Shown here in pieces: positions 14,185 through 14,321 of a stretch of DNA of 64,000 bases. Each line of letters opens with the position of its first letter. Positions within the stretch are counted from its first letter, which is position 1. The notes below the pieces were generated by a model that was not told the DNA's origin, made no database searches, and was given only the letters and a program-made list of their open reading frames with translations. Source of the stretch: Plasmodiophora brassicae (lineage: Eukaryota); assembly GCA_036867785.1 (NCBI GenBank), contig CP145415.1, positions 868,001 through 932,000 of the forward strand. Direction: 5' to 3'. The translations under genes were made by a program, and so were the position numbers.

Positions 14185-14321
14185 TATCACATCTTCGAAG
14201 ACACGGAAAACGCCTTCAAAGAGAAGATCTCATTGGAGTACTGCTGCGCCCGGAACTGGTTACGGGTGCAGCACTCCAATGAGACCTTTTCTTTGAAGGC
14301 GTTTTGTCCCAGGAGGTGGTA
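14185..14321 (+). ncRNA. Long pre-miRNA-like hairpin (candidate small-RNA precursor)
   Basis: 14207-14239 pairs with 14273-14305 (33 positions: 31 Watson-Crick, 1 GU, 1 mismatch); 3-nt bulge; 14243-14252 pairs with 14263-14272; 10-nt loop; imperfect basal stem; no credible ORF. Confidence 0.55.

Follow-up and report, generated by a model that had tools for sequence, protein, structure and literature searches.

A single-copy fold-back of Plasmodiophora brassicae matches Pb-miR126, and the Drosha-like enzyme PbDRL lacks the four acidic residues of RNase IIIa

Young plant MIRNA genes originate by inverted duplication, and their precursors are cut sequentially by DCL1. The primary microRNA transcripts of animals are cut by Drosha and then by Dicer, and the RNase IIIa and RNase IIIb domains of Drosha are assigned to the two arms of the stem as in Dicer. 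In Dicer, RNase IIIa cuts the 3' arm and RNase IIIb cuts the 5' arm (PMC13049099).

The small RNAs of the clubroot protist P. brassicae itself were sequenced over five life stages by Zhang et al. 2026 (PMC13547706). According to that report, 90.3% of them are 21-mers, with a 5' C bias and 21-nt phasing, and 234 miRNAs were listed; the ShortStack settings were lenient (strand cut-off of 0.5, sizes of 18–38) and RNAs with at least 10 counts were kept. Only miR002, miR041 and miR045 were individually validated there. The genome is described as encoding two Argonautes and a single Drosha-like enzyme, PbDRL, but no Dicer; PbDRL is reported as required for small-RNA production. Purified PbDRL turns long double-stranded RNA into 21-mers, and pairs with a 2-nt offset on opposite strands are reported. 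The authors found no DGCR8-like partner and state that it is not understood how, in the absence of Dicer, PbDRL gives rise to mature 21-mers.

The stretch analysed here (the window) comprises 64,000 nucleotides (C10:868001–932000) of a 25.28 Mb genome in 20 contigs. An initial annotation, made from the letters of the window, had described a fold-back with a stem of 33 bp plus 10 bp, a 10-nt loop, one G-U pair, one A-C mismatch and a 3-nt bulge, all of which were located as given. The features of the hairpin, in window coordinates, are as follows.

14207–14305, + strand: main fold-back (Pb-miR126 precursor), from the fold, the inverted-repeat scan and the pair table
14240–14242, + strand: asymmetric 3-nt bulge, inside the guide, from the pair table
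14253–14262, + strand: terminal loop, 10 nt, from the fold
14190–14318, + strand: looser basal extension (14190–14196/14312–14318 and 14200–14203/14305–14308), with pair probabilities of 0.74–0.99

From 14208 to 14252, the main stem consists of 42 helical steps, with one mismatch and the 3-nt bulge, and closes on the 10-nt loop. Positions 14207–14239 pair with 14273–14305, with the G-U pair at 14223/14289 and the A-C mismatch at 14227/14285, and the 10-bp upper stem (14243–14252/14263–14272) includes a further G-U pair (14248/14267) that had gone unmentioned. The bulge may move by one base, as the pair 14239/14273 has a probability of 0.53. In the minimum free energy (MFE) structure, the main stem opens at 14208/14304; the inner helices of the basal stem proposed earlier are present, but its outermost pairing (14185–14190/14316–14321) is absent.

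The MFE is -82.5 kcal/mol, compared with -36.2 ± 3.5 kcal/mol for 200 dinucleotide shuffles, none of which folds as well (z = -13.2), in keeping with the earlier judgement that the fold is beyond chance. The minus strand folds too (MFE -73, z = -9.8). The hairpin tops the 112 inverted pairs in the window (38 nt, 92% complementary) and, among the 25 best-listed of these, is the sole one with more than 84% complementarity. Likewise, the best six of 6388 sliding 137-nt folds of the window all derive from the hairpin, with a best energy index of -1.16 against a background of -0.54 ± 0.08 and a background minimum of -0.84. The fold-back is a real feature of this P. brassicae window.

Judging by an exact sequence match and a syntenic position, the locus is already known and is catalogued as Pb-miR126, one of the 234 miRNAs published in September 2026.

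14229–14249, + strand: mature Pb-miR126, 21 nt, 5' C, on the 5' arm (exact match to Table S8 of PMC13547706)

This sequence has one exact match in the window and one in the genome. The bulge falls at guide positions 12–14, and since its three bases are absent from the other arm, the guide arises only from the 5' arm of the + strand. Table S8 places Pb-miR126 at Ctg_8:881736–881811, an interval of 76 nt. Ctg_8 of PMC13547706 corresponds to C10, with an offset of +474 to +477 from miR123 and of +473 to +483 from miR128 (taken by eye, each interval being assumed to contain guide and partner); miR125 is compatible with the same offset. The annotated interval then maps to approximately 14210–14285 to 14213–14288. 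The length of 21 nt and the 5' C of Pb-miR126 agree with the reported small-RNA population. The main text of PMC13547706 does not mention miR126 by name, and its supplementary tables, as consulted, give no partner strand, count, precision or structure for it; six motifs from the hairpin, all lying outside the guide, had no match in the supplements consulted. Thus, the published entry and the locus described here share an identical 21-nt sequence and a syntenic position, and the duplex geometry was worked out only here. A reading of raw sequence had recovered a locus with published small-RNA support: the hairpin had been proposed as an RNase III substrate yielding 21–24 nt RNAs rather than a miniature transposon, which is supported by the 21-nt 5'-arm RNA listed from sequencing and by the lack of a second copy in the genome search, and two Argonautes and a Drosha-like RNase III are encoded in the genome.

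Each of the three validated miRNAs likewise falls within a fold-back of this genome. miR002 is fully paired and lies on the 3' arm with a 21-nt partner, in contrast to miR126, whose guide arm carries a 3-nt bulge. The stem that contains miR045 exceeds 120 bp, whereas that of miR126 is short. miR041, with a guide of 21 nt as well, was folded only on the strand opposite its guide.

The stem of Pb-miR126 can be divided into two blocks of 21 helical steps each (14208–14228 and 14229–14252), and the guide begins at the border between them. Its start lies 21 steps above the base and 21 below the loop, a coincidence expected by chance for about one register in 21, and therefore lends modest support to phased cutting. 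Three further products can be predicted from the stem.

14208–14228, + strand: predicted lower-phase 5'-arm 21-mer, with partner 14286–14306 in a clean 21/21 duplex (computed)
14268–14285, + strand: predicted canonical partner of miR126 with 2-nt overhangs, 18 nt (computed)
14265–14285, + strand: predicted alternative 21-nt 3' product (from the pair table, 21 helical steps)

The canonical partner would be only 18 nt long because the guide crosses the 3-nt bulge. The alternative 3' product has the 24-mer 14229–14252 as its predicted 5' partner; an enzyme that counts helical steps would generate this 24-mer with a 21-nt partner, and miR126 would then be a trimmed 24-mer. Neither the lower-phase 21-mer nor its partner is found in any row of Table S8. 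As the microRNA criteria of miRScore (Table 1 of PMC12594335) ask, the hairpin is single and unbranched, with the guide confined to one arm. The duplex, with three unpaired guide bases and one 3-nt bulge, is exactly at the limit of the rule that allows at most five mismatched bases and no asymmetric bulge larger than 3 nt. Guide and partner should both be 20–24 nt long; the guide has 21 nt, and the partner, on the 3' arm of this assembly, would have 18 nt. Table 1 further asks for at least 10 reads of guide and partner as a duplex with 2-nt 3' overhangs, and for no less than 75% of the locus reads at that duplex; of this pair, PMC13547706 lists the guide. The locus behaves like, and has been published as, a microRNA gene; because of the predicted 18-nt partner, it is not filed here as a strict microRNA.

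The hairpin is intergenic and lies upstream of both neighbouring genes, at 269 nt (stem to start) from the start codon of a diverging UPF1 gene and at 959 nt from that of an ankyrin-repeat gene on the same strand.

13540..13938, - strand: first coding exon of UPF1 (start codon 13938–13936; transcription runs away from the hairpin)
15264..16895, + strand: ankyrin-repeat protein with a hydrophobic N-terminus (same strand as miR126)

The UPF1 assignment is based on Pfam matches to UPF1_Zn_bind (E 1.7e-41) and, further down, AAA_11 (E 3.8e-32). The ankyrin-repeat protein carries a putative secretion signal, judged by eye, has paralogues in P. brassicae and resembles a secreted-protein candidate.

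A genome search with a 321-base query (E ≤ 10), which gives a lower bound, returned only the hairpin's own place and its own inverted arm; there was neither a second copy nor a parent gene resembling the arms, and the dispersed copies that would have marked a mobile element were not found. The 21-mers from both arms have no match elsewhere in the genome within two mismatches. Inspection of the flanks agreed with the initial annotation that no target-site duplication lies beside the stem. Rfam gave no matches at the gathering cut-off in the window; seven sub-threshold matches were all to generic hairpin models, the best miRNA family scoring 37 bits against a cut-off of 90.

The commonness of such hairpins was assessed by scanning 500,000 bases (C10:677001–1177000) in 48 separate pieces; since annotated loci were chosen as the ends of the scan, the count is slightly inflated. 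The scan detected 26 inverted-repeat pairs (score ≥ 20, spacer ≤ 700), while three shuffled controls gave 0, 0 and 0. Seven pairs have a spacer of at most 60, and all seven lie within small-RNA loci annotated in PMC13547706, five of them MIRNA loci (miR122, 123, 126, 127 and 128) and two PHAS loci (PHAS21-412 and -414). Conversely, seven of the eight MIRNAs annotated in this range overlap a scanned repeat, the exception being miR124. Such hairpins are ordinary in the P. brassicae genome, at roughly 14 per Mb. Six of about 15 repeat clusters are unannotated, all with longer spacers (90–650 nt). These lie on C10 near 701.3, 985.0, 998.5, 1016–1018, 1073 and 1116.5 kb and have no entry in Tables S6–S8 as consulted. 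Elsewhere on C10, a 31-bp hairpin that is near-perfect and closes on a 13-nt loop (C10:206802–206876) contains, by eye, none of the nearby Table S8 guides and is possibly an unannotated small-RNA locus.

For miR126, nine P. brassicae targets are predicted in Table S9 of PMC13547706, with scores of 100–109 at a threshold of 100; that table covers P. brassicae genes only. In our pattern search of the genome, no near-perfect target for Pb-miR126 was found, the guide having no site outside the hairpin within two mismatches. The sole site with three mismatches (on C6) has two of them in positions 2–8 and is at chance level, about 0.4 such sites being expected by our own calculation. At three mismatches, 1, 3 and 1 matches outside the hairpin were obtained for the guide and for two further 21-mers from the arms, respectively, compared with 0, 0 and 1 for the controls. 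The best duplex within the window reaches -29.1 kcal/mol, compared with -41.1 kcal/mol for a perfect match.

Transcript evidence was taken from 4 of 24 listed sequencing runs (X1, X4, X10 and X21), as contigs only and with the RNA status guessed; 20 of the 24 contain the stretch, all as contigs. UPF1 is spliced in contigs of three of the four runs (X1, X4 and X10). Contig cover of the intergenic region is low, and contigs of RNA type reach both flanks of the hairpin at low depth; X21 has no contigs here and X10 none over the stem, neither of which counts as evidence. In X10, a 6-base in-frame gap is seen at 15287, within the ankyrin-repeat gene. In X1, which is identical to the assembly, pieces end at 14207 and resume at 14251, leaving out the 5' arm (14208–14250) in this one run, which may reflect a loss of hairpin fragments in the library. 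In X4, one contig of 152 nt (depth 6.4) crosses the hairpin (window 14184–14343); it is missing 12 bases at 14229, the 5' end of the guide, and has seven other differences in 148 aligned bases, one of which changes the G-U pair 14223/14289 to G-C. The adjoining intergenic DNA in X4 has seven differences in 193 bases (depth 3). The variant contig may be an artefact; if it is a real allele, the fold-back is kept, the guide is lost, and the hairpin is no better conserved than the neighbouring DNA.

Taken together, we consider it probable that the locus is a single-copy, intergenic, microRNA-like gene that is cut by PbDRL, yields Pb-miR126 as guide, represses the parasite's own mRNAs weakly and is young. 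A + strand transcript would fold into the hairpin, as suggested by the computed fold and by the strand of the guide, and PbDRL would cut it in a register of 21 steps. The 21-nt guide is reported to accumulate (PMC13547706) and is probably loaded into PbAGO1/2, as reported for P. brassicae small RNAs generally. It may weakly repress the parasite's own mRNAs through partial pairing, as the nine low-scoring predicted targets suggest. The locus would then be young and loosely constrained, of an inverted-repeat kind that is numerous in this genome, rather than a conserved regulator. In common with young plant MIRNA genes and hairpin RNAs, it has a near-perfect stem and would have phased 21-mers and weak conservation, and one enzyme would make all cuts in both systems; in plants this is DCL1, whereas in P. 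brassicae it has a Drosha-like fold. Animal primary microRNAs resemble it in their basally extended stem, small loop and Drosha-like enzyme, but P. brassicae has no reported Dicer or DGCR8-like partner, and the RNase IIIa domain of PbDRL is without its catalytic acids (see below). As a single locus, miR126 matters little, being one row among 234 miRNAs.

The strongest alternative, which we regard as unlikely, is a hairpin-siRNA or two-strand siRNA locus, where PbDRL would dice either the fold-back or double-stranded RNA from overlapping UPF1 and ankyrin transcripts into several phased 21-mers, of which miR126 would be the most abundant, with no selected target, instead of a precise microRNA. 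It is consistent with the 18-nt partner, the lenient annotation, the folding of both strands, the classification of two of seven comparable hairpins as PHAS loci, the divergence of the X4 variant, which matches that of the adjoining DNA (7 differences plus 12 missing bases over 148 bases, compared with 7 over 193), and the lack of a strong target in our search. On the other hand, ShortStack called the locus MIRNA, for which at least half of the reads have to lie at the duplex. The annotated interval covers only 76 nt and does not extend beyond the hairpin, and the locus is not among the 23 PHAS loci of Ctg_8 nor among the repeat-siRNA loci in the tables of PMC13547706 consulted, which also favors the microRNA-like gene.

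Alternatively, the hairpin may act in cis, either in the promoter region between the two diverging genes or in a long leader 5' to the ankyrin coding sequence, and be cut to control the transcript, with the small RNA as a by-product; we consider this improbable. The hairpin is on the same strand as the ankyrin gene, 959 nt before its start codon, and one X1 contig runs unbroken from 14251 into that gene at similarly low depth; however, a contig across two features does not prove a single transcript, the run may contain DNA, the intergenic cover is broken in X4 and X10, and a stable 21-mer is reported (PMC13547706). It is highly improbable that the hairpin is a miniature-transposon relic, its stem being made of the terminal inverted repeats: the long inverted repeats with a short spacer, the TA at both outer ends of the interval first annotated (14185–14186 and 14320–14321) and the presence of TIR elements in the genome (PMC13547706 Table S5) would suit such a relic, but the TA ends lie 20 nt beyond the good repeat, the genome search (E ≤ 10, a lower bound) and the arm 21-mers point to one place only, and none of the repeat-siRNA loci listed in PMC13547706 corresponds to this locus.

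The gene for the enzyme expected to cut the hairpin lies in the same window, 18 kb away, a closeness that we read as coincidence.

32515..34979, + strand: PbDRL (Pb06299), Drosha-like RNase III, identified from a primer match, domains, fold and residues

A PbDRL primer of PMC13547706 matches 33292–33311, and three further primers match by eye. PbDRL has 697 residues, with two RNase III domains and a double-stranded RNA binding domain (dsRBD) detected by Pfam. A weak PAZ-like signal is located near residues 161–201 (E 0.0014 with one exon, 0.13 with the whole protein); a Dicer-type reading based on this match was dropped, as Drosha leads both fold searches. The predicted model (pLDDT 76, from an alignment of 30 sequences) has Drosha as its best match in both Foldseek and VIA, and the PDB sequence matches are also led by Drosha. 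In VIA, Drosha has a Z-score of 29.9 (rmsd 9.6, 556 aligned), compared with 26.1 for the best Dicer; the alignment behind the model was built from Drosha-like matches, which favors this result. The modelled protein appears to have the layout of Drosha, with a platform/PAZ-like region, two RNase III domains, a dsRBD and the Drosha fold.

A Drosha is also expected to have two working active sites. In an alignment with 29 long homologues, chosen from 150 matches, the RNase IIIa metal positions of PbDRL are occupied by S344, S348, S415 and T418, whereas the homologues have Glu in 28/29, Asp in 28/29, Asn/Asp/Glu in 29/29 and Glu/Asp in 29/29, respectively; one homologue also lacks the first two acidic residues. 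RNase IIIb keeps E507, D511, D574 and E577. The same RNase IIIa and IIIb motifs are present in the window's own exon translation. As read from these residues, RNase IIIa is without its four acidic residues and is very likely dead, which suggests that PbDRL nicks one strand. This loss of residues is new here: the main text of PMC13547706 contains no comment on the RNase IIIa residues, which the alignment in its Figure S11 may show.

It is possible, if somewhat doubtful, that Pb-miR126 arises by a hitherto undescribed route, in which the Drosha involved has a single working active site. RNase IIIb alone would free the guide by successive one-strand nicks at 14228|14229 and 14249|14250, with no coupled cut of a partner. 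One-strand nicking would explain a 21-nt guide that crosses the 3-nt bulge and has no 18-nt partner. It also agrees weakly with the X1 contigs, which break off at 14207 and begin again at 14251, the loop and the 3' arm being intact. Where duplexes with 2-nt overhangs are found elsewhere, they might be produced by a pair of oppositely oriented enzyme molecules or by the products of three other RNase III-domain genes. We rate this route for miR126 much lower than the death of RNase IIIa because of the 2-nt-offset pairs and the 3'-arm guides in PMC13547706; miR002, on the 3' arm, counts against a simple nicking model, as do the 21-mers that purified PbDRL yields from long double-stranded RNA, although binding of two enzymes in opposite orientation might reconcile these findings. 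The lopsided hairpin is a useful test substrate, since its bulge makes three mechanisms predict three different 3'-arm products. If PbDRL works with one active site, this would be a new way of making microRNAs and would bear on the design of hairpin and double-stranded RNA constructs against clubroot.

A search of the genome for RNase III domains gave four places, one of which is PbDRL. The other three (C8:541008–541262, C18:20502–20702 and C12:948565–948744) are also above the Pfam cut-off; PMC13547706, in the parts consulted, discusses a single RNase III homologue. The C8 gene is a paralogue of the C12 gene (52% over 79 residues). Downstream of its RNase III domain, the C12 gene has a weak dsRBD-like match (E 0.007), an arrangement reminiscent of budding-yeast Dicer. 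The C8 gene has no informative sequence match in the PDB, and the C18 gene may be of organellar or ribosomal type. Two tandem Piwi-domain genes are located at C12:592510–596413, as reported for PbAGO1 and PbAGO2 (PMC13547706).

The UPF1 contig of X1 (mean depth 2115) has 53–56 extra 5' bases beyond 13952. They match one place on another chromosome (C5, about 138957–139012), directly followed by a GT donor; on the window side, the junction falls at an AG acceptor (13951–13950, - strand), 11 nt before the UPF1 start codon. The canonical splice sites at both ends suggest spliceosomal trans-splicing, which was stated in 2018 as not found in P. brassicae (Matsuo et al.). Regular trans-splicing of UPF1 is a tentative lead, and we lean against it: the leader is seen in one contig of one run, with the X4 and X10 contigs ending short without it; three bases are common to both sides of the junction; and the C5 donor is single-copy and followed, about 100 nt later, by a possible cis acceptor. 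By our own reasoning on the assembler, a leader common to many mRNAs would be expected to break the contig within about 30 bases, which also counts against it. Neither a clear Sm site nor a stable fold (z = +0.84) is seen at the C5 donor, which has no Rfam match either, and the leader has no match in the window or in metagenome contigs.

Other genes in the window include an eIF2B-epsilon-like exon (8561–9028, + strand; Pfam LbH_EIF2B), a kinesin-like gene recognized from motifs by eye (34491–37636, - strand), which lies tail to tail with PbDRL, and an open frame of 1165 codons (58964–62461, - strand).
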